Origin: a virus
IMG/VR virus record: IMGVR_UViG_3300045988_153046
Strand: one strand, 5' to 3'
Length of the DNA stretch: 58,315 nucleotides
Made by a program: the position numbers and the translations under genes
The notes under the pieces: model-generated
The model's database searches: none
The model's input: only the letters and a program-made list of their open reading frames with translations
What the model was told of the DNA's origin: nothing
Shown: positions 1 through 58,315 of the stretch, in pieces
Position numbering within the stretch: position 1 is the stretch's first letter
Layout: each line of letters opens with the position of its first letter

Positions 1-119
1 GTTTTTTTTTTTTTTGCGCTCTAAAGATACCCCTCAAAAGTGATTAGGTTAAAGCATGAATACAAAGGCAAGGAGGGTTATTTGATGGGCGTTGCTGAGG
101 ATGTATTAGAGTATCTGAA
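1..119. repeat. Terminal redundancy (identical to 58197..58315); unit genome about 58196 bp
   Basis: Base-by-base identity of G+T14+GCGCTCTAAAG...GTATCTGAA at both window ends. Confidence 0.95.
20..50 (+). promoter_or_regulatory. Bipartite motif copy 1 (putative phage-specific promoter or leader element)
   Basis: TCTAAAGA-N12-GTGATTAGGTT directly after the T14 terminator tail; upstream of 85..381. Confidence 0.6.
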
Positions 120-10636: not shown

Positions 10637-10667
10637 TCTAAAAATCTACCTCTCATGTGCTTATGAT
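10637..10667 (+). promoter_or_regulatory. Bipartite motif copy 3
   Basis: TCTAAAAA-N12-GTGCTTATGAT; spacer TACCTC is complementary to the RBS GAGGTA (10677-10682). Confidence 0.55.
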
Positions 10668-10688: not shown

Positions 10689-11123
10689 ATGTATGTAGTT
10701 GGTATAGGCAATGTAACAGGGTGCAATAAAGCTTATATTTTCCTCAATGATGAGGGTAAACAGAGTAGTAAAAAGGCTACTGAGGATCTCTTGGTAGATG
10801 TGTTTACTCAGGCAGAGGCGGATTGTAGATTTTATTGTCGTATGGGGGAAGATTTAAGAAAAGAATTTGAAAAGCGGCGGGATAAAGTAGAGGAGCGGTA
10901 TCACTTTATCACTGATGAGGAAGTGCAGGAGAAATATAGAGCCTCTGGGTACAGGGGTGGAATAGGGCTTGAGGTAGATCAAAAAGTAAATAATGAGGAA
11001 TGTACTAGGCAATATGCCGCTGTATATGGGTTTTATGATGCGGTAAAGTATGCTAATGAGAGATGGGTGGAGGCTGATAAGCTTAAAAGACAGGCTGGAT
11101 CAGCTTTACACGAAAAATTTTAA
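10689..11123 (+). CDS. Hypothetical protein (moron-like cassette gene)
   Basis: ATG after AAGGAGG; flanked by its own motif and two terminators, inside the head module. Confidence 0.55.
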   Translation: MYVVGIGNVTGCNKAYIFLNDEGKQSSKKATEDLLVDVFTQAEADCRFYCRMGEDLRKEFEKRRDKVEERYHFITDEEVQEKYRASGYRGGIGLEVDQKVNNEECTRQYAAVYGFYDAVKYANERWVEADKLKRQAGSALHEKF

Positions 11124-20047: not shown

Positions 20048-20671
20048 ATGGTGTTTGCAATACAGCAAGAAGATAGCGGTAGAATTGTTTTCCCTGTATC
20101 TCCTGAGAGCTATACAATTTCTGTTTCTAGCAGAAATACGGTAGCTAATGTGTTTCAAGTAGGAGATGTAAACTTAAAGGGAAAGACAGGGTTAAGGGAG
20201 GTATCCCTTAACTCTTTCTTTCCAGCTAAAGATTATAACTTTGCAAAGATGGTAGGCGATCCGCTCTCTTTAGTAACACAGATTGAGGGGTGGAGAAACT
20301 CAGATAATCCTTGCAGGGTTGTAATTGGCAGGGTACTTAACATGGAATGTACCATAGAGAGCTTTTTGTGGGGTGAGCAAGATGGTACTGGAGATATTTA
20401 TTTTACACTTACCTTAAAGGAGTACAAAAGGATCAAAACTAAGAAAGCTAATATCACTGTAGAGACAGATCCGCCTAAGAAAAGGGAAACAAAAAAACCT
20501 AAAAAGAACAGCGGAAAAACCTATACGGTGAAAAGCGGGGATTGTCTTTGGAACATTGCTAAAAAGTTTTATGGAAATGGATCTCAGTACAATAAGATTT
20601 ATGAGGCAAACAAGGACAAAATAAAAAATCCTAATTTGATCTATGTTGGGCAAGTGTTGACTATTCCTTAA
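20048..20671 (+). CDS. XkdP-like tail protein with C-terminal LysM
   Basis: C-terminal [49 protein letters not shown] is a LysM domain. Confidence 0.8.
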
Positions 20672-24430: not shown

Positions 24431-26632
24431 ATGGCGGATTATAGAAATGCGGTTTTGTGCGTAAATGGTGAAAGGCTACTTGAGTTAGCGGTATCTGGAG
24501 CGGCTCAGATTAAGTTTACCTCTATCAAAACCTCCAGTACAAGATATGAGACTACTCAGCTTAGAGCTCTTACTGATATTGGGGATATTAGACAGAGTAG
24601 CGGGATCTCTGCTAGTACAGAGGATAGCCTTAACACAGTCTCTCTTTATACTTCTTTCTCTAATGCTAAGCTTGCAGAGGGGTATTATGTGAGAAACTTT
24701 GGTATCTATGCGGCTGATCCTGATGATGCTACTGGAGAAACTGAGCTTTTGTATGCGGTGGTTAATGCAGATGAGAGCGTTAATCCAGCTACTTTTATTC
24801 CCGCTTACAGTACTAAGGGTACTAGCGGTGTGGATTTTACCTGTGAGATTGTAGTGGCTAATTCGAGTGAGGTAACTATTAAGCTGGATGAAAATGCTGG
24901 AGTGCCTCTGAGTGTATTTAATACCTTTGCTGAACAGTTTAACGCTGGTATGCAAGCGGTAGATGAAAAGCTTGTAAAAGTGGATACTACTCTTAATGAG
25001 TTTGGTACTACTATTGCAGAGTTTGATACTGTTATTGAGAGTGTAAAAGTATCTCTCAGTGAGCATACTGCTGAGGATGCCCTTTACAGTGAGGCGGGGG
25101 TGCATAACCTTAGATACCATGAGGGAGTATTACAAGTCAAAACTCAAGAGGGTAACTGGGAGGATGCTGGCGGTAGTGGCGGCGGTATCGCTCCTAATGA
25201 TTGCTATGATATAAGTGTGAGGGCTGGTAATTCTAAGCTTACCCTTTTCTGGAGCGATCCTGAGGATACAGTGATTGAGGGGCGAAAGATTTGTACATGG
25301 GCTGGCACTAAACTTGTAGCTAAGGTAGGGGCTTATCCTGAGGATGTCAATGATGGTATTCTCCTTTTGGATAACAAGGTGAGAAATCAGTACTCTAAGA
25401 GCGGAGGTACTGGGTTTGAGTACAATAACCTCAACAATGGCACTACTTATTACTTTGCTCTATTCCCTTACAGCGATCAGAAAGCGGTTAATAAGAGCGA
25501 GAATAACAGGGCAAGCGGTACTCCTCAAGAGTATGTTGTGTATGGCATTGAGATTGATCTTACTAACAGCGATCCTACAAAATGGGCTACTTATACTGAT
25601 GATGCTGTAGGTATGACGGCGGGATCAAGTGCTTTTGATGGTAAGAGCATTTTTGATATTCAGAGCTATACCTTTAAAGATGGGGCAGAGGTAAAGGCTC
25701 TCAGTAAAACCGATAATACAAAGTATGCGGATGGCTCTAGTGCCAGTGCGGATCTCACTAGCGGTACTTATGATATTATGACTAAGTTTAAGAGAGGCGG
25801 GTATTACATTACTCACTCTGGAAACAAGCTTATTATCAAAGTTACTGATGATCCTAATAGAGATGGCTTTTGCTACAAGGCATTTCAGAGAGGCTCAGTT
25901 GATAAAGAGGAGTTTTATCTGGGGCGGTATAAGGGCTACATTGACGGTAACAGTAAACTTCGCTCTTATTCTGGGGTTACGCCTACAGGCAGTAAAACTA
26001 TTTCACAGTTTAGAACAGCGGCACACGCTACAGGGAAAGGCTATGAAAACAGCGGATTTTATCAGCTTGTTTGGCGGCAATGCTTGTACATGGTTAAGTA
26101 TCTTGCAAATAACTCTCAGCTTACTATTGGTAAGGGCTATACTGGAGGCTCCTCAGTTACCAGTACAGGCTCTACTAACGGTAAGGGAGATACCTATGGT
26201 ACTCAGACTAATACAGAGCACATGATCCTCTTTGGAATTGAGGATTTTTGGGGTAATATCTGGGAGTGGATTGATGGGCTTGCTACAGATAGTGCTAGAA
26301 ATATCCTTACAAATACCGATAACTTTCAAGATAACGGTATGGGCGGCGGCTATCTCAGTACCCCTAGTGGCTTATCATCTGATACGGGCGATTGGATGAA
26401 AGACGTGCAGGGCACTAATGATACTGGCTTTGTATTTAAGGCTGGTGGCGGATCGTCCACTACGAGTTTTTGTGATGACGGTCTTCTCTATGGTGGGTGT
26501 GTTGCGAGATTTGGCGGCTATTATAGTGATGGGGGTAATGCGGGTGTTTGTTATCTTTATGTGAGCTATGCGGCGGGTGGTTCTGGTGCTAGCATTGGCG
26601 GTCGCGTCATGTTCCTTGCTCCTAATTCTTGA
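24431..26632 (+). CDS. Tail fibre / receptor-binding protein; DGR target with C-terminal variable region
   Basis: Position after the baseplate genes. GNIWEWIDG (FGE/C-type-lectin-fold signature). The last ~50 codons are the VR copy of the TR. Confidence 0.9.
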   Translation: MADYRNAVLCVNGERLLELAVSGAAQIKFTSIKTSSTRYETTQLRALTDIGDIRQSSGISASTEDSLNTVSLYTSFSNAKLAEGYYVRNFGIYAADPDDATGETELLYAVVNADESVNPATFIPAYSTKGTSGVDFTCEIVVANSSEVTIKLDENAGVPLSVFNTFAEQFNAGMQAVDEKLVKVDTTLNEFGTTIAEFDTVIESVKVSLSEHTAEDALYSEAGVHNLRYHEGVLQVKTQEGNWEDAGGSGGGIAPNDCYDISVRAGNSKLTLFWSDPEDTVIEGRKICTWAGTKLVAKVGAYPEDVNDGILLLDNKVRNQYSKSGGTGFEYNNLNNGTTYYFALFPYSDQKAVNKSENNRASGTPQEYVVYGIEIDLTNSDPTKWATYTDDAVGMTAGSSAFDGKSIFDIQSYTFKDGAEVKALSKTDNTKYADGSSASADLTSGTYDIMTKFKRGGYYITHSGNKLIIKVTDDPNRDGFCYKAFQRGSVDKEEFYLGRYKGYIDGNSKLRSYSGVTPTGSKTISQFRTAAHATGKGYENSGFYQLVWRQCLYMVKYLANNSQLTIGKGYTGGSSVTSTGSTNGKGDTYGTQTNTEHMILFGIEDFWGNIWEWIDGLATDSARNILTNTDNFQDNGMGGGYLSTPSGLSSDTGDWMKDVQGTNDTGFVFKAGGGSSTTSFCDDGLLYGGCVARFGGYYSDGGNAGVCYLYVSYAAGGSGASIGGRVMFLAPNS
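26467..26616 (+). repeat. DGR variable region (VR)
   Basis: 150-nt ungapped match to 26807..26956; 24 mismatches, 23 of them opposite TR adenines. Confidence 0.92.
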
Positions 26633-26639
26633 GGAGCAA
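26616..26639 (+). other. Hairpin at the 3' boundary of VR, spanning the fibre stop codon
   Basis: TTGCTCCT (26616-23) pairs with AGGAGCAA (26632-39); 8-nt loop. Confidence 0.75.
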
Positions 26640-26806
26640 AGGGCGGCATGATGTGATAAGCGGCGGCAAGGGATAACCTGAGGCGGCAAGCACAGAAACA
26701 ATACTACAATTAAATACTGGGCAATGAGGATAGACCTGTGTACGCATTGGAAAACACTTAACACTAAGCTCGTGTGCATTACTCTATTGCTTATAAAAAA
26801 GCAAAA

Positions 26807-26956
26807 TTTTTGTGATAACAGTAATCTCTATGATGGGTGTGTTACGAAATTTGGCGGCAATTATAGTAATGGGGATAATGCAGGTGTTTGTTATCTTAAT
26901 GTGAACAATACGGCGAGTAATTCTAATGCTAACATTGGCGGTCACGTTATATTCCT
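26807..26956 (+). repeat. DGR template repeat (TR)
   Basis: Adenine-rich (AAY codon-rich in the VR frame), invariant donor copy, 200 nt upstream of the RT. Confidence 0.92.
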
Positions 26957-33291: not shown

Positions 33292-33304
33292 TATATAGGG
33301 GTTA

Positions 33305-33335
33305 TCTAAAATAATAAGCCTCCTGTGATTAGATT
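33305..33335 (+). promoter_or_regulatory. Bipartite motif copy 4
   Basis: TCTAAAAT-N12-GTGATTAGATT; spacer CCTCCTG is complementary to the RBS CAGGAGG. Confidence 0.6.
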
Positions 33336-33364
33336 ATTTAGACTAATTGCAGGAGGTTATTTTT

Positions 33365-35038
33365 ATGATTAGAGTAGAGAAACTAGAGAAAGGGCTGTAT
33401 TTTGATGATGCCTACAAACTCTCTTTTAGGTACGATCCTATTACTGTAAGCAAGGTAAAAGAGCTTGCTCAGAGAAGATACTTACCAGAGGATAGGGCTT
33501 GGGAGATCCCTAGCTATGAGTTACCTAACTTGATTGATAAGGTGGGGTTGAATAATATTGATGCTGAGGATGCTCTTGTAGGGGCTTTGAAATCAAAAGA
33601 GATAGAGGATAGGAGAGCGGCTACAGAGGAAAGGCTTAGAGGGATAAAGCCTCTGATAGATTTTGATTTTACTACAGAGCCTCTCCCTCATCAGATAGAG
33701 GCTTTTAATTTTGGGCTACAAAAGGATAAAATGCTTATAGGAGATGAGCAAGGCTTAGGAAAAACAAAAGAGAGCATTGATATTACAGTAGCTAGAAAGC
33801 ATGAGTTAGTAAAAACCTTGATTGTATGCGGGGTAAACTCAGTTAAGTATAACTGGGAGCGTGAGATTAAGCTACACTCCAGAGAAAGCTCTGTAATGAT
33901 TGATGGTAAAACAATGGATCTCAGGGTAAAGCAGATTTATGAGTGGTATAAGAGCTCTAGCTATTTTGGGATTATCAATATTGAGAGCCTGAGGAAAGAG
34001 CAGATACAGGATGCTCTTTTTGATGGTATCAGAGATGGCTATATTGGGGCTGTAATTGTGGATGAGATCCATAAGGCTAAAAATGGCAGTAGCCAGCAAG
34101 GGAAAGCTCTTAGAACACTAAAAACGCCTATAAGATTGGGGCTCTCAGGTACTCCCATGAATAAGGCGGAGGATCTCTGGAATATTCTCACATGGCTAGG
34201 GGTTGAAAATCGTCCTTTTTACAGGTTTAGATCTACTTACTGTGTTATGGGTGGATATGGCGGGTATAAGGTGGTAGGGCATAAAAATCTTGAAAGCCTT
34301 AATGCAGAGCTTAATACTGTGATGCTGAGGCGTAAAAAGGGTGAGGTGCTGGATTTGCCGCCTAAGATCCATAGTACAGAATATGTAGAGCTCACTAAGA
34401 AACAGCAAATTATGTACAGGGATATTAAGAATGGGATCATAGCAGATCTTGAGAATATTCTTACCAGCGTAAATCCGCTTAGCTGTACTTTGAGGCTCAG
34501 ACAGCTTACAGGAGGGTTATTTACTGAGGAAAATCCTAAGCTGGAGAGGCTTATGGATATGTTATCTGAGGAAATTATCCCTAATGGTTATAAGGCTCTT
34601 ATATTTTCTCAGTGGGAGAAAATCACTGAGGTATATTATGAGGCGTTGAAAGAGTATAATCCCGCCTATATTGTAGGCAAGGTATCCCCTGAGGATAGAG
34701 AGGCTGAAAAAGAGCATTTTCAGAATGATCCAGAGTGTAAGCTAGCTATTGGTACTATCGGTGCTATGGGTACTGGATTTACTCTCACTAAGGCTAGTTA
34801 TGTTTTCTTTATAGATAAGGCATGGGTTAGCGGAGATAATGCTCAGGCTGAGGATAGAGCACACAGAATAGGTACAGAGGATACAGTAAATGTTATCTCT
34901 TTGGTGGCTAAAGGTACTATAGATGAGGGAATTGAGGAGTATCTGATTGAAAATCAAGATCTCTTTGATCGCGTAGTAGATGGTAAAGGCTCTAAGCACG
35001 ATATTAGGCAAGTGCTTAATAATCTCTTGAAAATATAG
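33365..35038 (+). CDS. SNF2-family helicase
   Basis: DEQGLGKT, DEIHKAKN, SGTPM, QAEDRAHRIG motifs. Confidence 0.9.
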   Translation: MIRVEKLEKGLYFDDAYKLSFRYDPITVSKVKELAQRRYLPEDRAWEIPSYELPNLIDKVGLNNIDAEDALVGALKSKEIEDRRAATEERLRGIKPLIDFDFTTEPLPHQIEAFNFGLQKDKMLIGDEQGLGKTKESIDITVARKHELVKTLIVCGVNSVKYNWEREIKLHSRESSVMIDGKTMDLRVKQIYEWYKSSSYFGIINIESLRKEQIQDALFDGIRDGYIGAVIVDEIHKAKNGSSQQGKALRTLKTPIRLGLSGTPMNKAEDLWNILTWLGVENRPFYRFRSTYCVMGGYGGYKVVGHKNLESLNAELNTVMLRRKKGEVLDLPPKIHSTEYVELTKKQQIMYRDIKNGIIADLENILTSVNPLSCTLRLRQLTGGLFTEENPKLERLMDMLSEEIIPNGYKALIFSQWEKITEVYYEALKEYNPAYIVGKVSPEDREAEKEHFQNDPECKLAIGTIGAMGTGFTLTKASYVFFIDKAWVSGDNAQAEDRAHRIGTEDTVNVISLVAKGTIDEGIEEYLIENQDLFDRVVDGKGSKHDIRQVLNNLLKI

Positions 35039-39235: not shown

Positions 39236-39266
39236 TCTAAAAGTAGCCTCTTTTCCTGATTAGATT
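39236..39266 (+). promoter_or_regulatory. Bipartite motif copy 7
   Basis: TCTAAAAG-N12-CTGATTAGATT; the spacer forms a 13-bp stem with the RBS region. Confidence 0.6.
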
Positions 39267-39294
39267 TGAGTATCACAGGAAAGGAGGCTTTTTA

Positions 39295-39783
39295 ATGAGC
39301 ACATTGAGTAGTAAAGCGGTAGCTGAAATGTTAGGTAAGCGGCATGATAACTTTATGAGAAATCTGAGGAGTTATGCGGCTACGCTTGGAGAGAGTGCGT
39401 CTGAGTATCTTATTGAGAGTACCTACAAAGACGGAAAAGGAAAGGTAAGAGCTGGGTATGAGATTACCCTTAAAGGCTGTGATTTGATTGCTGGTAGGAT
39501 TATTGGGGCTAAGAGTGATGAATTTAGAGAAAAGTATAAGCCCTTATTTTCTGAGGGTGAGGGCTCTGAGCCTGTAAAAGAGCGTTGTACCCCTCAGGAG
39601 GTGCATGGTTATACTACTGAGGAGGCGGCTAAGGTATTGGGCTGTAGCCGCCGTACTGTACAGAGAATGATCCAGCGGGGGGAGTTGGCTACTCAAGAGG
39701 TTACTGTGTTAGTGCCTACGGTTAAAACTCTTATAATCCCTGAGGAGTTGGATAGATACCAGAAAGAGAGGGCGGCTGTATGA
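39295..39783 (+). CDS. Rha-like regulatory protein with a C-terminal excisionase-type HTH
   Basis: N-terminus SSKAVAEMLGKRHDNFMRNL; C-terminus YTTEEAAKVLGCSRRTVQRMIQRGEL. Confidence 0.6.
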   Translation: MSTLSSKAVAEMLGKRHDNFMRNLRSYAATLGESASEYLIESTYKDGKGKVRAGYEITLKGCDLIAGRIIGAKSDEFREKYKPLFSEGEGSEPVKERCTPQEVHGYTTEEAAKVLGCSRRTVQRMIQRGELATQEVTVLVPTVKTLIIPEELDRYQKERAAV

Positions 39784-40387: not shown

Positions 40388-40430
40388 TATAAAAAAAGAG
40401 AGGAGGCTTACTCCTCCCCTCTCTTGCTAA

Positions 40431-40829
40431 TTACTTAGCGATCTTGATAGCTATGGTTGCTAACAGGTGCTTGTCCTCCTCTGAAAGCTTGAGATAAAGC
40501 CTAAGGAATTGCACTAGCTCACTATCTGTACCTAACCTCTGCTGTAGCTCTGAGAGCTCTTTGTTGGGGAGGCTCTCAGGAGAGAAGTTAAAGAAGTGTT
40601 CTATGGGAGCATTAAGGTAAGTAGCTAGCCGCTGTAATCGCTCCATATCAGGGAGATGCCTACCAGTATTCCATGCTGAGATGGTAGTAGGTGGTATCTC
40701 AAGAGCATCAGCAATATCTTTATTGCTTTTTTTCCTTAGGGCTTTGTAGTAAGCCATTGCCCTAGAAAAGCTCTCATTGAGGGGGGATTTGTTAGACACG
40801 TTTTCACCTCCTCTCTTTGAGGCATACAA
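40431..40829 (-). CDS. XRE/CI-like repressor (only credible minus-strand gene)
   Basis: KKSNKDIADALEIPPTTISAWNTGRHLPDMERLQRLATYL; GGAGG RBS on the minus strand; divergent from a consensus promoter. Confidence 0.8.
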   Translation of the reverse strand: MYASKRGGENVSNKSPLNESFSRAMAYYKALRKKSNKDIADALEIPPTTISAWNTGRHLPDMERLQRLATYLNAPIEHFFNFSPESLPNKELSELQQRLGTDSELVQFLRLYLKLSEEDKHLLATIAIKIAK

Positions 40830-40901
40830 GTATTATACAGTTAAACAAGCGTTTTGTAAAGTCCGAACATCAAAAAAGTTAGTTAAACTGTATTTATGCT
40901 A

Positions 40902-40930
40902 TTGACAGGCGGTTAAGCGAGTGATATAAT
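40902..40930 (+). promoter_or_regulatory. Consensus sigma-A promoter (early rightward)
   Basis: TTGACA-N17-TATAAT with a TG extended -10. Confidence 0.8.
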
Positions 40931-42463: not shown

Positions 42464-43060
42464 ATGAACACAGGAAAAAGGACAAATGAGGAATTGGTAA
42501 TAGTTTATAGGATTACCAGAGATGAGAGTTATTTAGCAGAGCTCATAAAGCAGAACAGGGGGCTCTTGTATATGATTGTTGAGCCGTTTGTACATAGTAT
42601 CCCTAATGCAGAGCTTGAGGATCTTACCAGTGAGGCTTATATCCCCATGCTGAGGGCTATTGAGGATTTTGATGAGGCTAGGGGGCTTACCTTTGCTAAT
42701 CTGCTTAAGGTGTATGTGCGCCAGCATTTGAGCCGCCTTTACAATGAGGCTACACGCCAGAAACGCTATAACGGATCTACCAGTGTTGGCTATGAAAGCC
42801 TTACAGAGATCAATAGAGAGGGTGGATCTGAGGGAGACAGCTATTTTACTGTAGATTGTGAGGATTTTAACTCTGTAGAGTTTATGCAGTTTATCAATTC
42901 CTTAGAGCTGAATGAGAAAGAGACGGTAGCTGTAAATGTACTCATGGCTGGAGGTACTAAGGGTGAGGTGGCAAAAGCTCTTAAGTGTACTCCAGCTACG
43001 GCAAATTATTATTTCAAACAGATTAGGAGAAAGTTTGTTTTGGCGGGTTATGCGCTCTAA
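42464..43060 (+). CDS. Phage-encoded sigma-70-family factor (regions 2 and 4)
   Basis: Region-2-like DLTSEAYIPMLRAIEDFDEARGLTFANLLKVYVRQHL; region-4 HTH GTKGEVAKALKCTPATANYYFKQIRRKF. Confidence 0.75.
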   Translation: MNTGKRTNEELVIVYRITRDESYLAELIKQNRGLLYMIVEPFVHSIPNAELEDLTSEAYIPMLRAIEDFDEARGLTFANLLKVYVRQHLSRLYNEATRQKRYNGSTSVGYESLTEINREGGSEGDSYFTVDCEDFNSVEFMQFINSLELNEKETVAVNVLMAGGTKGEVAKALKCTPATANYYFKQIRRKFVLAGYAL

Positions 43061-46253: not shown

Positions 46254-46880
46254 GTGGAAATAGCCAGCAAGAGGGAAAGAGGAGATAAGCCTGATGGTGA
46301 GTTTGATTATGGCTGTGCTTGCTATAGTGGGGCTTTGGAGGCGTTTGAGGTGCTCTGTAATCAGGGGCATAGTGGTATGAGTATTGGCTTTACAAAACAG
46401 ATCCTTAACAGGTTGATAGATGGAAAACCTCTTACTCCCATTGAAGATACTGAGGATGTATGGAATTTAACACATAGAGAGGGAAAGATTAAACATTATC
46501 AGTGTAGCCGCATGAGTAGCTTGTTTAAGGATGTATCAGAGGATGGCAAGATTACTTATTCAGATGTTAATAGAGTATGCGGGGTTGATTGTAATTCTGG
46601 GGCTACATATCACTCAGGGTTAGTAAGTAGGGTGGTTAATGAAATGTACCCTATCCAGATGCCCTATATTCCAAAATCTCCTTATAGAGTGTTTTGTGAG
46701 GATTTTCTAACTGATAAGAAAAATGGAGATTTTGATACGGTTGGTATTTTTTATTTAATTGATCCTGATGGGGAGAGAGTGGAAATAAACCGATTTTTTA
46801 AGGAGAGTAGCTTAGGGTTTTCGGAGATCTCTAAAGATGAGTATATGGAAAGAAAGAGTAATAGAATAGCGTTAAAGTAG
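46254..46880 (+). CDS. Hypothetical protein
   Basis: Long ORF on the coding strand; GTG start uncertain. Confidence 0.5.
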   Translation: MEIASKRERGDKPDGEFDYGCACYSGALEAFEVLCNQGHSGMSIGFTKQILNRLIDGKPLTPIEDTEDVWNLTHREGKIKHYQCSRMSSLFKDVSEDGKITYSDVNRVCGVDCNSGATYHSGLVSRVVNEMYPIQMPYIPKSPYRVFCEDFLTDKKNGDFDTVGIFYLIDPDGERVEINRFFKESSLGFSEISKDEYMERKSNRIALK

Positions 46881-46911
46881 TCTAAAATGAGCCTCCCTTT
46901 GTGATTAAGAT
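46881..46911 (+). promoter_or_regulatory. Bipartite motif copy 9
   Basis: TCTAAAAT-N12-GTGATTAAGAT; the spacer forms a perfect 12-bp stem with the methylase RBS. Confidence 0.6.
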
Positions 46912-46937
46912 CGGTAAACACAAAGGGAGGTATAGTT

Positions 46938-47492
46938 TTGAAAGTAGACATTTTTAGAACGGATAAAAAATACGGCGTGATTTATGCAGATCCAGCATGG
47001 ACTTACAGAGATAAAGCCCTTGCGGGTAATCGTGGAGCGGGTTGCAAATATCCTGTTATGAGTTTAGAGGATATTTGTAGATTGCCTGTAAAAGATCTGG
47101 CGGCGGATGATTGTGTATTGTTTTTGTGGGTTACTATGCCTAAGCTAAATGAGGCTTTTGATGTAATGAAAGCGTGGGGGTTTGAGTACAAAACTTGCGC
47201 TTTTACATGGGTTAAGCAAAACAGAAAATCAGATCGCCTTTTTTGGGGTATGGGGAGGTGGACTAGAGCTAATGCGGAGTTGTGCCTGTTAGGTACTAAG
47301 GGAAAACCTAAAAGAGAGGATGCTGGGGTACATAGTGTTATTATTTCTCATGTTGAGGAGCATAGCAAAAAGCCAGCAGAAACAAGAGATCGCATTGTAA
47401 GGCTATTAGGTGCGGGGGAGGGCATACAAAAGATAGAGCTTTTTGCAAGGCAGACAGTAGAGGGCTGGGATTGCTGGGGGAATGAGGTATAG
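46938..47492 (+). CDS. MT-A70-family N6-adenine DNA methyltransferase
   Basis: VIYADPAWTY (DPPW motif), EHSKKP; TTG start after AAGGGAGG. Confidence 0.88.
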   Translation: MKVDIFRTDKKYGVIYADPAWTYRDKALAGNRGAGCKYPVMSLEDICRLPVKDLAADDCVLFLWVTMPKLNEAFDVMKAWGFEYKTCAFTWVKQNRKSDRLFWGMGRWTRANAELCLLGTKGKPKREDAGVHSVIISHVEEHSKKPAETRDRIVRLLGAGEGIQKIELFARQTVEGWDCWGNEV

Positions 47493-47777: not shown

Positions 47778-47810
47778 TAGAGGAGGGGCTGTAGAGGCTC
47801 CTCTTTCTTT

Positions 47811-47841
47811 TCTAAAAATCTGGGCGGTATCTGATTAGGTT
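47811..47841 (+). promoter_or_regulatory. Bipartite motif copy 10
   Basis: TCTAAAAA-N12-CTGATTAGGTT after a terminator-like hairpin. Confidence 0.6.
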
Positions 47842-51245: not shown

Positions 51246-51698
51246 ATGCAGATTGAAGTAAACGGAATGATTATGGAGTTTGATGAGAAATTGTTGCTTA
51301 AGCAAGAAATCAAAGTAGGCGATAATGTACAGGTACTCAAAAAGGGCTACTCTAGCTATGAGTGTTATGCTGGTGTTATTACTCAGCTCTTACCTTTTAA
51401 GGACAAGCCAGCAATGGAGGTTATGTATCTTGAAAATGGCTATTCTAATTGCGAGATTAAAAAGCTGGTAATAGTGCAGGGGGCAGAGGGAGAGGATACT
51501 CCAAAGATTATTAAAATGGATGATAAGTTTCTACCATTCACAAAAGAGCGTTGTGTGGATCTTCTCCAGCAAGATATTACAAAGAAAGAGAATGCTTTGG
51601 CAGAGGCTAGATTAAAGCTAGAGTATTTCCAGACATATTTTAATCGCTATTTTGAGGAAATCCCTAAGCAGGAGGAGGGCGGCAATGGCGGAGATTGA
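51246..51698 (+). CDS. Hypothetical protein
   Basis: ORF in the operon. Confidence 0.45.
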   Translation: MQIEVNGMIMEFDEKLLLKQEIKVGDNVQVLKKGYSSYECYAGVITQLLPFKDKPAMEVMYLENGYSNCEIKKLVIVQGAEGEDTPKIIKMDDKFLPFTKERCVDLLQQDITKKENALAEARLKLEYFQTYFNRYFEEIPKQEEGGNGGD

Positions 51699-52692
51699 TA
51701 ACCTCATAGCTGAGGTAAATAAGAAGTATAAAACAGGCATTATCAGAAAAGCCTCAGATCTTAAGAGTGTTGAGTTTATTCCATACACCTCTCCTCAGAT
51801 GAATTACATAACTAGGGGCGGAGTACCTGTAGGGCGTATGGTTGAGCTGGTGGGGTTGCCTCAGAGCGGTAAAACTACTACAGCATTAGATGTACTCTCA
51901 AACTATCAGAAAAAGTATCCTGAGCGGTATGCTGTATATCTGGATGCAGAGAACACTCTGGATAAAGACTGGGGAGAAACTCTTGGGGTAAGCTGGGAGA
52001 GTGTTATCTTAATTCAACCTGAGAGCGAGTATGGGGAGGATCTCTTAGATATGCTCTTAGATTATATCCGCTCAGGCAAGGTAGGGATGGTAGTGCTTGA
52101 TAGTGCTCCCTTTATTGTGCCAAAGGGGGTAGCGGAAAAAGGACTTGATGAGAAAAGTTACGGCGGCAATAGTGCTCTGATGAAAGCCTTTTGTGATAAG
52201 GTGATCCCTCTTTGTAAAAAGTATGAGTGTACTTTTTTACTGCTCAATCAGCTAAGGGAGAACATTGGAAATCCTTATAAGCCGTTTAAGATCCCTTGTG
52301 GTACAGCTCTTACTCATGCCTGTAGTGAGATCCTCTGGTTTACAAAAGGGGCTTTGCTGGATGAGAAATACAAAGAGGTAAGCAGTAACTACCCTAATCC
52401 TATTGGTAATCTGGTATCTGTGAAGATGGAGAAAAACAAAGTTACCAGAAATGATAGGCGGCTGGGTACATATACCCTCAATTATGAGAGAGGAGTAGAT
52501 GCTGTAAAGGATACTCTGGATTTAGGGATGGTGCTGGGTATCATTGTTCAAACTGGGGCATGGTACAAGATTACAGATACTCAGGGCAAAGAAGTAAAGC
52601 TACAGGGCTTTAGTGGGGTGCAGGATTATTACTACAATGATCTTGATGAGCTGGAGGCTCTGAAAGCTGAGGTATATGAGGCTACGAGATGA
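51685..52692 (+). CDS. RecA-family recombinase
   Basis: Walker A GLPQSGKTT, Walker B MVVLDSA, LLNQLRENIG; ATG 51685 after AGGAGGAGGG. Confidence 0.85.
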   Translation: MAEIDNLIAEVNKKYKTGIIRKASDLKSVEFIPYTSPQMNYITRGGVPVGRMVELVGLPQSGKTTTALDVLSNYQKKYPERYAVYLDAENTLDKDWGETLGVSWESVILIQPESEYGEDLLDMLLDYIRSGKVGMVVLDSAPFIVPKGVAEKGLDEKSYGGNSALMKAFCDKVIPLCKKYECTFLLLNQLRENIGNPYKPFKIPCGTALTHACSEILWFTKGALLDEKYKEVSSNYPNPIGNLVSVKMEKNKVTRNDRRLGTYTLNYERGVDAVKDTLDLGMVLGIIVQTGAWYKITDTQGKEVKLQGFSGVQDYYYNDLDELEALKAEVYEATR

Positions 52693-52695
52693 GAG

Positions 52696-52722
52696 AGGAG
52701 GGGCTGAGGCTCCTCCTTTTTT
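52696..52722 (+). terminator. Rho-independent terminator
   Basis: 9-bp stem AGGAGGGGC / GCTCCTCCT with a TGAG loop, T6. Confidence 0.8.
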
Positions 52723-52723
52723 A

Positions 52724-52754
52724 TCTAAAAAAACTCTCTTTAAGTGATTAGGTT
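52724..52754 (+). promoter_or_regulatory. Bipartite motif copy 11
   Basis: TCTAAAAA-N12-GTGATTAGGTT; a 15-bp stem links it to the RBS. Confidence 0.6.
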
Positions 52755-52781
52755 GTTTATCACTTAAGGGGAGGGATATGA

Positions 52782-53535
52782 GTGCCTACAACAATGAGTA
52801 TTGAGGAAATGCGTAAGCATGAATGGGTTGTTAGTTGGAGCGGAGGCAAAGATAGTACAGCTACTATTATTTTATGTCATAAATACGGCATACCGATTAA
52901 AAGGATTGTGTATGTTAGCATGATGTATGATGAAAAGCTCCCCGCTACTTTGCCTATTATGACAGAGTTTGTAGATAGAGCTAAAGAAGTGTTTGAGAAT
53001 TGGGGGTATCCTGTAGATATAATTGAGGGTGTATATACAGCTAAAGATTTTATCAATAAGGTTTATTTCAAGTCAAAGTATGAGTATAAAAACGGTAAAC
53101 CTTATGGGGTAAGTGCTTTTTGTAGAGCCGCTTGTAAGTTTACAGGAGTTAAATCTGCTACAATTAGGAAATCCCTAGAGGGCTCTAGCTATTATGAGAT
53201 GTTAGGTTATGCTTGTGATGAGGATGAGCGGCTTGATCGCTTGACAGAGACTAAGCAATCTATCATGGTTACTTTGGGGGGTTAAAGAAACTGATACTTT
53301 TTCTATTTGCGAAAATTATAATCTACTTTCTCCGCTGTATGGTTTAGGGTTTAGTGGGGATGGGTGTTGGTTTTGTCCTAATGCGGCAAAAGCTGAGAGA
53401 GCCTACATCAGAGACAATTATCCAGATCTTATAGCGGAGATTTTGTGGATGATTGAAATGTGTGGGTATGATGTATCCTCAATAGCTCATAGAAATCACT
53501 GGGTAGAGGATTATTATAAAGGAAAGCTCAAATAA
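52782..53535 (+). pseudogene. PAPS-reductase-family (PP-loop) protein split by a 1-nt frameshift in a G6 run
   Basis: SWSGGKDST PP-loop. The ORF stops at 53283-85, but the +1 frame continues VKETDTFSICENYNLLSPLY...GCWFCPNA to TAA 53533-35. G5 instead of G6 (53276-81) would fuse them. Confidence 0.8.
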
Positions 53536-53613
53536 GGGAGCCAGTAAAAGCGGAGAAGTTTTAAGCTCTCTGCTTTTATAGTAAAAAATATATAAGGGAT
53601 ATATAAAAAGTGC

Positions 53614-53642
53614 TTGACAATGGTATATAGGGGGTATATTAT
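53614..53642 (+). promoter_or_regulatory. Sigma-A-type promoter
   Basis: TTGACA-N17-TATTAT. Confidence 0.7.
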
Positions 53643-53686
53643 GAAGATAATCTAAGAGATACAAACTGAAAGCAGGAGGTAAGGAT

Positions 53687-53875
53687 ATGACACAGGAACA
53701 AGTAAAGGAATTAAAGGTAGGTAGCAGAGTAGTGGATCTTTTAGAGGATACTCTGGAGGTAGTAAAGATAGATGGGCTCTTGTATGAGCTTAAGTGGGTG
53801 CGTGAGGATGGAACGCTCTCACAGGGTAGCCAGATAGCAGTACCCTCACACTTTGAGTATATGAGATTGGCATAA
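53687..53875 (+). CDS. Hypothetical protein
   Basis: ATG after AGGAGG. Confidence 0.5.
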   Translation: MTQEQVKELKVGSRVVDLLEDTLEVVKIDGLLYELKWVREDGTLSQGSQIAVPSHFEYMRLA

Positions 53876-53887
53876 GGAGGAGATATT

Positions 53888-54112
53888 GTGTTAGAGAATA
53901 AGATCAGGAGATATAAGATCATGGATGCACATAGAGCTCTCATTAGAAAAGGGCTCTACAGACAGGCTCAGCTTGTTATGAAATCTTTAGCAGATGGTAA
54001 GGTTACTCTCTGGCTGGATGATGATAGCTGGGCGGTAGAGAGCCTCCTAGAGGGGATGGGATGCCGTATTTGGTATGATGGTAGAGGAAATAAAGCAGTA
54101 GCTCATGTATGA
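53888..54112 (+). CDS. Hypothetical protein
   Basis: GTG after AAGGAGG. Confidence 0.45.
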   Translation: MLENKIRRYKIMDAHRALIRKGLYRQAQLVMKSLADGKVTLWLDDDSWAVESLLEGMGCRIWYDGRGNKAVAHV

Positions 54113-58175: not shown

Positions 58176-58211
58176 AGAGAGGGTAACTCCTCTCTTGTTT
58201 TTTTTTTTTTT
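58176..58211 (+). terminator. Strong rho-independent terminator
   Basis: AGAGAGG / CCTCTCT stem followed by T14. Confidence 0.85.
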
Positions 58212-58315
58212 GCGCTCTAAAGATACCCCTCAAAAGTGATTAGGTTAAAGCATGAATACAAAGGCAAGGAGGGTTATTTGATGGGCGTTGCTGAGGATGT
58301 ATTAGAGTATCTGAA
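58197..58315. repeat. Terminal redundancy (copy of 1..119)
   Basis: Exact identity with the window start. Confidence 0.95.
58216..58246 (+). promoter_or_regulatory. Bipartite motif copy 1 repeated within the terminal redundancy
   Basis: Same sequence as 20..50. Confidence 0.6.

Follow-up and report, generated by a model that had tools for sequence, protein, structure and literature searches.

A Shine-Dalgarno-sequestering hairpin within a putative phage sigma-factor promoter: a candidate translational insulator in uncultivated Clostridia phages

Introduction

Hairpins that sequester a ribosome-binding site and are relieved by initiation at an internal late promoter have been described for the T4 genes e, soc, 49, I-TevI, I-TevII, I-TevIII and segB, and for mobE of phage Aeh1; in the long early RNAs the ribosome-binding site is buried, and translation takes place on RNAs of the late promoter, which lies within the DNA encoding the 5' strand (PMC3014915; PMC2988022). 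Here we describe a hairpin at positions 52734-52773 of the IMG/VR virus record IMGVR_UViG_3300045988_153046, a stretch of 58,315 nucleotides which is called the window throughout. The hairpin precedes a gene for a protein resembling 3'-phosphoadenosine-5'-phosphosulfate (PAPS) reductase. Its 3' arm covers the Shine-Dalgarno sequence of this gene, and its 5' arm lies between the two conserved boxes of a repeated, promoter-like motif.

Other phage systems are of interest for the comparison. In phage Mu, the trans-acting RNA-binding protein Com opens a hairpin in the mRNA of the mom gene itself. Phage sigma cascades are known from SPO1 (gp28 and gp33/34) and T4 (gp55), among others. The sigma factor of phiEco32 and 7-11 is an example of such a phage-encoded cascade (PMC8948821). 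Promoter-early stem-loops (PeSLs) are composite terminator and promoter cassettes that are repeated in intergenic regions of T4-type phages (PMC2839356; PMC4122927).

Results

Structure of the hairpin and the ribosome site it covers

The 5' arm CTCTCTTTAAGTGAT and the 3' arm ATCACTTAAGGGGAG form 13 Watson-Crick and two G-U pairs around the 10-nt loop TAGGTTGTTT, and both mismatches to a perfect complement consist of a T opposite a G (coordinates are listed in Table 1). RNAfold returns this 15-bp hairpin as the minimum-energy as well as the centroid structure (-19.8 kcal/mol, z -2.9), and equally good folds were obtained from 2 out of 200 shuffles. The stem is also listed as I13 among the 29 inverted repeats of the window. 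It contains the GTGAT of the right box of the motif (52744-52748) and AAGGGGAG of the ribosome-binding site; four of the five core Shine-Dalgarno bases (GGAGG, 52770-52774) lie within it, and the Shine-Dalgarno stretch covered is 52767-52773. The 5' arm (motif positions 11-25) joins a pyrimidine-rich anti-Shine-Dalgarno stretch, located in the spacer between the boxes, to this GTGAT, and the loop consists of the 3' half of the right box and four further nucleotides. In the long transcript the Shine-Dalgarno sequence is hence paired in a stable helix. A stem of exactly this size and pairing, enclosing both GTGAT and the ribosome-binding site, had been proposed from the letters alone (the sequence-only reading), and both sequence and RNAfold bear it out. 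The numbering of motif copies used there likewise agrees with the copies found, number 10 starting at 47811 and number 11, to which the stem belongs, at 52724.

The sequence directly 3' of the stem (GGGATATGAGTG / GGATATGA) has a longest T-run of 1, and the combination of a G+C-rich stem with an immediate U-tract that marks an intrinsic terminator is not found in the 52724 copy. A comparison with Rfam 15 gave no match at gathering score anywhere in the window.

The two-box motif and its distribution

The motif reads TCTAAAA-N13-(G/C)TGATTAGGTT. It occurs in 12 distinct copies in the window (13 matches if the terminal overlap is included) as compared with 0.41 expected by chance, all of them intergenic and on the + strand, and half of them (at 20, 10637, 36938, 47811, 52724 and 55444) directly after a terminator. 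The copy at 10637-10667, the degenerate twelfth one with GTGCTTATGAT as right box, is located after its terminator and before an ATG at 10690 in the structural-gene region.

A set of 84 non-redundant copies from related phages, referred to as the family, was used for all comparisons of copies. The spacing of N13 between the boxes was demanded by the search pattern, so its constancy in these copies is preset. At positions outside the search requirement, conservation is seen for G21 (76%), A32 (69%), T35 (90%) and A36 (87%), and positions 37-39 are conserved to about 60%. Position frequencies over the 84 copies reveal no conserved element upstream of the left box. Measured between their centres, the two boxes are about 22.5 bp apart; the TA(TCA) element follows about 10 bp further on, 4 nt 3' of the right box. 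The distance from the boxes to the Shine-Dalgarno sequence is variable: the latter never starts before motif position 40 and usually at 45-49, and counted from the first base of the left box, the start codon follows at 54-87 nt. In 127 of 141 unique motif instances, a Shine-Dalgarno sequence with a start codon is present downstream.

Since the spacing of the boxes and TA(TCA) has the geometry of a -35 element, a -10 element and a start site, the motif is most likely the promoter of a phage sigma factor, with a predicted start near A52762. As in promoters of the sigma-70 family, two conserved elements at fixed spacing stand upstream of genes on the coding strand. The right box together with TATCA was also considered as an element of sigma-54 or sigma-28 type, and TATCAA as a -10 element; these readings were rejected because the spacings in the position frequencies do not fit.

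The exact motif was found in 117 IMG/VR stretches, many of these contigs having 2-4 copies. In 596 Gb of prokaryotic genomes it was found in 81 stretches, mostly as singletons, where a rough estimate of the chance expectation is about 70; these matches were consequently discarded as a signal and used for background and host hints only. Genome contigs with 2-3 copies were binned with Lachnospiraceae, Clostridium sp. and Bacillota, which makes a member of the gut Clostridia the probable host. A literature search for TGATTAGGTT returned unrelated primer matches only, and the motif was not found there in the present context.

The candidate sigma factor

The proposed reader of the motif is a protein of the sigma-70 family (Table 1), with matches to phrog_351 (2.6e-15), to Pfam Sigma70_r2 (5.5e-6) and to the sigma70-ECF superfamily of NCBIfam (4e-8, under the curated cut-off), as well as a weak, sub-threshold match to a GerE-type helix-turn-helix at its C-terminus. 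Its region 2 resembles RpoS and SigA, and the protein is distantly related to characterised sigma factors. In each of the 33 related loci with a homolog of it (62-85% identity), 1-7 copies of the motif are found on the same strand, one of them usually at the stop codon of the sigma gene. Hence a sigma gene is encoded by the phage and co-occurs with the motif, within one lineage.

The operon that ends with the sigma gene is headed by a host-type promoter at 40902-40930, divergent from a CI-like repressor gene (40431-40829, - strand), and, judged from the sequence, this arrangement is that of a phage sigma factor expressed early. The region 40431-40930 has the appearance of a lysogeny-type switch, with the CI-like HTH_3 gene on the - strand followed by its own terminator (40394-40425), and with divergent near-consensus promoters at 40832-40860 (-) and 40902-40930 (+). 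An integrase was not noticed in the scanned proteins of the window.

Canonical sigma-70-type promoters located directly before a Shine-Dalgarno sequence and start codon (35027, 53614, 54619) are without a hairpin that sequesters the Shine-Dalgarno sequence. A second repeated motif, TATATAGGGG(N)TA, occurs at 33292, 35032, 53589 and 53624 on the + strand (4 copies, 0.98 expected). It is placed in the spacers of the promoters at 35027 and 53614 and just 5' of the motif copy at 33305, and may be an operator for a helix-turn-helix regulator.

Pairing between spacer and Shine-Dalgarno sequence

The N13 spacer is rich in pyrimidines in many copies, where it is complementary to the Shine-Dalgarno sequence downstream and to the flanks of the latter. 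Over the family, duplexes of positions 5-25 with their own downstream segment have a mean energy of -14.9 kcal/mol, compared to -11.9 kcal/mol for non-cognate combinations, a difference reached by none of 10000 permutations; a control segment of equal length 5' of the left box pairs at -7.7 kcal/mol. The same alignment-free test was applied within gene groups. Cognate pairing clearly exceeds non-cognate pairing in the methyltransferase gene group (-24.5 vs -18.6 kcal/mol, 0/5000) and in the Rha-like gene group (-24.3 vs -18.1 kcal/mol, 0/5000), and one further group is marginal (254/5000). In the SNF2 group the stem is strong and invariant, so the test is powerless there; the remaining groups have weak hairpins and no within-group signal. 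An alignment of the methyltransferase group (A1) contains 15 pairs, eight of which are changed on either side of the pair, and reaches 0.379 in covariation as compared with 0.204±0.033 for shuffled alignments (0/500); registers slid against each other score 0.10-0.22. For the Rha-like group, an alignment by MAFFT and RNAalifold was set aside since the 3' arms were misaligned and the consensus was meaningless; the alignment-free tests take its place.

The sequence-only reading had placed a compensatory change elsewhere, in the pair flanking TGAT...ATCA, which is C...G in one and G...C in the other of copies 10 and 11. The change is literally present in these two copies, but it does not extend to a general covariation in the family: among the 35 copies with ATCA at positions 36-39, positions 21 and 40 form Watson-Crick pairs in 13, as opposed to 11.7 expected from the marginals, and covariation at this pair is therefore rejected. 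The genuine covariation is that of the N13 spacer with the flank of the Shine-Dalgarno sequence.

The sense strand forms the more stable structure in 59 of 84 copies (p = 2e-7), a bias that points to RNA of the coding strand rather than to a palindrome of double-stranded DNA. The hairpins are under selection, in a subset of copies only. In the window, strong hairpins are present at the copies 33305, 39236, 46881 and 52724.

Consequences of the start site for the leader

If RNA contains the spacer, the Shine-Dalgarno sequence is mostly paired: its probability of being unpaired is 0.21 over the family, as compared with 0.73 in RNA beginning at position 38 (p = 4e-15). For the 52724 copy the corresponding values are 0.08 in the long RNA and 0.40 in RNA from position 38. 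The term leader stem, by which the hairpin had been introduced, appears half apt. There is a genuine stem, and it does sequester the ribosome-binding site, but with its 5' arm between the promoter boxes it is probably absent from the gene's own mRNA.

Orthologous leaders of the PAPS-reductase-like gene

The gene downstream of the hairpin matches phrog_424 (7.3e-15) and, weakly, Pfam PAPS_reduct (1.3e-3) and tRNA_Me_trans (2.6e-4). GTG at 52782 is taken as its real start because the ortholog at locus L001 has an ATG in its place and shares the N-terminus that follows. An out-of-frame ATG at 52778, four nucleotides upstream of the GTG, opens an 8-codon open reading frame (52778-52804) overlapping the start of the gene, which is present in locus L119 and absent in L001. 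In the roughly 330 nt 3' of the gene (53286-53613) no convincing open reading frame was seen on the + strand; the sigma-70-type promoter at 53614 follows.

A protein-guided metagenome scan for orthologs yielded five loci, one of them near-identical to L001, and three distinct leaders of this gene exist in all, counting that of the window. The leader of L122 is identical to that of the window. The layout of terminator, motif and hairpin is the same in L119 (89% amino-acid identity) and in L001 and L121 (72%; near-identical to each other), and the orthologs L120 and L123 are without the whole cassette. Conservation in homologous phages, on which the sequence-only reading had staked its proposal, is thus seen where the cassette is present, with the fold kept in all three distinct leaders: a continuous helix of 15 bp in the window (-19.8 kcal/mol), an outer and an inner helix with a small bulge between them in L119 (-17.7 kcal/mol), and two helices with a small bulge in L001, where CUCCCCUC pairs with a G-run (-26.2 kcal/mol). 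If the leaders are shortened to the predicted start, no significant structure remains in these three orthologs (z -0.5, -0.2 and -0.6). The G-run of L001 (2981-2993), which forms the Shine-Dalgarno sequence and 3' arm, has 11 G as compared with 9 in the otherwise near-identical L121; the difference could stem from an error in sequencing, or the tract could be prone to slippage and tune the hairpin in this way.

Sister copies and terminators

The 52724 copy is preceded by the terminator of a RecA/UvsX-like gene, the U-run of which abuts and overlaps the left box. In a fold of 52680-52800 the hairpins of terminator and stem stand side by side (-50.9 kcal/mol, z -6.6). The strong copies at 33305, 39236 and 46881 are arranged differently, with a T-run following the stem and without a separate upstream terminator. 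Over the family, hairpin strength correlates (Spearman rho -0.64, p = 4e-11) with a T-run directly 3' of the 3' arm, in the stretch from the Shine-Dalgarno sequence to the start codon, and a stem followed by a U-tract, as in an intrinsic terminator, is found in many members of the family and, within the window, in copies such as 39236 and 33305. An inverse correlation of hairpin strength with an upstream terminator, which had been expected, was not found in the family (rho 0.05). By their sequence, the T-run copies resemble intrinsic terminators with the next promoter inside them, the 3' arm being also the ribosome-binding site that comes next.

Directly 5' of the hairpin-guarded methyltransferase gene, positions 46254-46880 encode a homolog of Tad3, an inhibitor that acts against Thoeris defence (Pfam PF25185, 9e-28).

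Table 1. Coordinates of the hairpin, its motif and associated features (positions refer to the window; for the L064 and L115 stems only the arms are given)
Feature	Position	Strand	Sequence or description	Basis
Left box, motif positions 1-7, putative -35-type element	52724..52730	+	TCTAAAA	motif scan
Right box, motif positions 21-31, putative -10-type element	52744..52754	+	GTGATTAGGTT	motif scan
Predicted transcription-start region, motif positions 35-39	52758..52762	+	TATCA, best guess A52762	position frequencies, sigma-70 geometry
5' arm of stem	52734..52748	+		sequence, fold, inverted-repeat scan
Loop	52749..52758	+		fold
3' arm of stem	52759..52773	+		sequence, fold, inverted-repeat scan
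Shine-Dalgarno sequence	52767..52775	+	AGGGGAGGG, core GGAGG 52770-74, 7 nt before start codon	sequence
PAPS-reductase-like / PP-loop ATPase gene	52782..53285	+	GTG start, 167 amino acids	phrog_424, Pfam, orthologs
Intrinsic terminator ending RecA/UvsX-like gene (stop 52692)	52687..52726	+	18-bp stem	fold
Copy 10	47811..47841	+	after terminator 47780-47806; CTGAT/ATCAG inner helix only	
Copy 9, methyltransferase gene	46881..46941	+	12-bp perfect stem CCTCCCTTTGTG/CACAAAGGGAGG within 27-nt imperfect inverted repeat	
Copy 7, Rha-like regulator gene	39236..39297	+	13-bp stem GCCTCTTTTCCTG/CAGGAAAGGAGGC, then TTTTT	
Copy 4, SNF2 helicase gene	33305..33385	+	stem CCTCCTG/CAGGAGG and inner ATTAG/CTAAT helix, then T-run	
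Sigma-70-family factor, proposed motif reader	42464..43060	+	198 amino acids	phrog_351, Pfam, NCBIfam
Host-type promoter heading the operon that ends with the sigma gene	40902..40930	+	TTGACA-17-(TG)TATAAT, 12/12 consensus	promoter scan
L064 stem			ACCTCCTGTGATTAG / CTAATCACAGGAGGT	
L115 stem			ATACCCTCCTTTTGTG / CACAAAAGGAGGGTAT	

Genome context

The two ends of the window (1-119 and 58197-58315) form an exact direct repeat of 119 bp, and the window represents a complete phage genome, circular or with terminal redundancy, of 58,196 bp. All annotated genes are on the + strand except for the one CI-like repressor gene. A DNA search with 51652-53900 in a collection of cultured phages gave no matches, and the terminase TerL is only about 29% identical to proteins of Bacillus phages. 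Further repeats comprise an inverted repeat 3' of an SLT-domain gene (1144-1188; 17 bp, perfect, loop of 11 nt), a 20-bp inverted repeat of 90% (20180-20223), and a 150-nt direct repeat of 84% (26467-26956, units at 26467 and 26807).

Discussion

Proposed function as a translational insulator

Based on this dataset, we hypothesize that the stem is an insulator of the T4-lysozyme type, a promoter placed in a hairpin that silences RNA initiated upstream, and we regard this as moderately probable. The sigma gene would be made early from the host-consensus promoter at 40902, and the sigma factor would then read TCTAAAA as the -35-type and GTGATTAGGTT as the -10-type box. Starting at about A52762, transcription would yield a leader of about 20 nt with a free Shine-Dalgarno sequence, from which the PAPS-reductase-like gene would be translated. 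RNA arriving from upstream through the terminator at 52687-52726 would carry the spacer, and its 5' arm would pair with the Shine-Dalgarno region and block the 30S subunit. The gene would in this way be expressed solely from its own sigma-dependent promoter, which amounts to a translational insulation of the transcription unit. The 5' arm would be missing from RNA of the own promoter because a right box that serves as -10 element puts the start downstream of 52754, and the hairpin would therefore fold only in RNA entering from upstream. If the predicted start is right, the position of the 5' arm between two conserved boxes would suit a promoter-internal design of the T4 type.

In sister copies without an upstream terminator, the hairpin with its U-run probably also terminates the upstream unit. 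Since the 52724 copy has a separate terminator and no T-run, translational silencing of residual or antiterminated read-through would be the role remaining for it.

Several points weigh against this proposal. The strong terminator before the 52724 copy may leave little read-through RNA on which the hairpin could act. The upstream unit (from 47811) has a promoter of the same class, and it is not obvious that read-through and locally started transcripts would differ in timing; because of this shared class, the benefit would lie in insulating the level of expression and not in an evident switch of timing. The co-occurrence of sigma factor and motif is confined to one phage lineage and is not independent evidence. 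The boxes are assigned as putative -35 and -10 elements by geometry alone, and no characterised -10 consensus is matched well by the right box. Strong hairpins (<= -18 kcal/mol) are present in about a third of the family copies (32/84), and five of the eight gene groups are without within-group covariation in addition to the marginal sixth. Finally, there are only three distinct ortholog leaders, in which the changes are compatible with the fold and not strictly compensatory, since G, in which the 3' arms are rich, can pair with C as well as with U.

Alternative explanations

A true leader riboregulator would be obtained if the gene's own mRNA started 5' of the 5' arm, with the hairpin in every transcript, for instance if TCTAAAA were a -10-only element like the T4 late promoter TATAAATA. 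Translation would then need a trans-acting factor, be it an RNA-binding protein on the conserved GUGAUUAGGUU, a helicase, or cleavage by RNase III, in analogy to Mu Com and mom. In favour of this, the Shine-Dalgarno sequence lies under a very stable stem, GTGATTAGGTT is strongly conserved and often found in the loop, and a direct comparison of TCTAAAAA with TATAAATA gives identity at 6/8 positions. A start about 7 nt after the left box would still leave 11 bp of the 52724 stem. On the other hand, a start 6-8 nt after TCTAAAA (about positions 13-17) cuts the anti-Shine-Dalgarno core, which is usually located at positions 12-17, and an own promoter further upstream finds no conserved element 5' of the left box. 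The behaviour of the right box is also at odds with recognition in RNA. It lies in the stem or in the loop depending on the copy (compare L064 with the window copy), and is rigidly spaced from the left box and variably from the Shine-Dalgarno sequence; this is unlike an RNA recognition element and expected for an element of double-stranded DNA. A two-domain sigma factor would moreover be expected to read two boxes. A riboregulator of this kind hence appears unlikely.

More broadly, the hairpin might act on the expression of its own gene either in the own mRNA, opened by a phage factor on GUGAUUAGGUU, or as a hairpin in the sense strand of DNA that is used by the sigma holoenzyme in the manner of N4 promoters. 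We consider an action of this sort distinctly unlikely. If true, it would represent a previously undescribed regulatory RNA or DNA element common to a family of uncultivated Clostridia phages.

An element acting at the level of DNA is improbable as well. The inverted repeat with its core GTGAT-N10-ATCAC could be an operator of a dimeric phage regulator that overlaps the promoter, or be extruded as a DNA hairpin such as those at promoters of the N4 virion RNA polymerase. TGAT-N10-ATCA is indeed found five times in the window (1.19 expected) and in 35 of the 84 family copies, and several helix-turn-helix regulators are encoded (39295, 39780, 40034, 40431). Yet the outer 10 bp of the stem differ among copies and covary, where the half-site of an operator would be conserved, and motif positions 37-39 are conserved to the modest extent given above. 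G-U pairs on the sense strand, together with its greater stability relative to the antisense strand, rather indicate a structure of RNA or of the sense strand.

That the hairpin is primarily a terminator or 3'-end structure of the upstream unit, with an incidental occlusion of the Shine-Dalgarno sequence, appears quite improbable for the 52724 copy. The correlation with T-runs in the family, and the absence of separate upstream terminators from the strongest T-run copies, would speak for it. However, the 52724 copy and its orthologs in L001 and L119 have no T-run after the stem and are already served by a separate upstream terminator, and the loop of 10 nt exceeds that of typical intrinsic terminators.

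Chance complementarity of a pyrimidine-rich promoter spacer with a purine-rich ribosome-binding site is highly improbable: any CCTCC-like spacer will pair with GGAGG, as the non-cognate mean illustrates, but cognate pairing exceeds all permutations, A1 holds double compensatory changes, the fold persists in diverged orthologs, and the control segment pairs far more weakly.

Significance

If the insulator proposal is true, a family of uncultivated phages of gut Clostridia builds a translational insulation, in some copies also a transcriptional one, into the spacers of its sigma promoters. A single module of about 60 nt would combine the stop signal of the upstream unit with the promoter of the next unit and its ribosome-binding site. 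The mechanism of a few T4 genes would be extended to another phage lineage, to another promoter type and to multiple promoters per genome. For the annotation of such phages, the data would provide an explicit promoter motif along with a candidate sigma factor, and they suggest that a strong stem over a ribosome-binding site in a presumed leader need not regulate the gene's own mRNA. The compact design might possibly be useful as an insulator in synthetic biology.

Comparison with known systems

As in Mu mom, a stable hairpin occludes the Shine-Dalgarno sequence of a gene of the DNA-modification type. Unlike the Com-dependent case, neither a trans-acting factor nor the need for one is indicated in the window.

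With phage sigma cascades the locus shares the pairing of an early phage protein of the sigma family with a phage-specific promoter motif before later gene blocks. To our knowledge, TCTAAAA-N13-GTGATTAGGTT matches none of the consensus sequences of the SPO1, T4 and phiEco32/7-11 systems, and the sigma factor of the window differs from those cascades in being only distantly related to characterised sigma factors.

The likeness to PeSLs consists in a repeated intergenic cassette of stem-loop or terminator and promoter at module boundaries, which is modular here too, as the orthologs without the cassette illustrate. PeSLs contain an early promoter for the host sigma-70 with a stem-loop upstream of it, in contrast to the present arrangement, where the putative promoter is inside the stem-loop and the 3' arm is the ribosome-binding site for the gene that follows.

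The closest relation is that to the T4 e and soc group, in which a stable helix likewise buries the Shine-Dalgarno sequence in long RNA initiated upstream. Unlike in T4, where the 5' arm lies beside a late promoter consisting of a -10 element only, the 5' arm in the window fills the spacer of a putative two-element promoter. The device also differs in recurring at promoters of one motif class (four strong cases out of 12 here, about a third of the 84 family copies), in the host lineage, Clostridia, in the U-run added in some copies, and in being known here from sequence alone. The mechanism proposed would thus be of a known kind, that of T4. New would be the location of an anti-Shine-Dalgarno arm inside the -35/-10 spacer of a phage-sigma promoter, and, beyond this, its occurrence at several promoters per genome, its covariation across a family of uncultivated Clostridia phages, and its fusion with a terminator in some of the copies.

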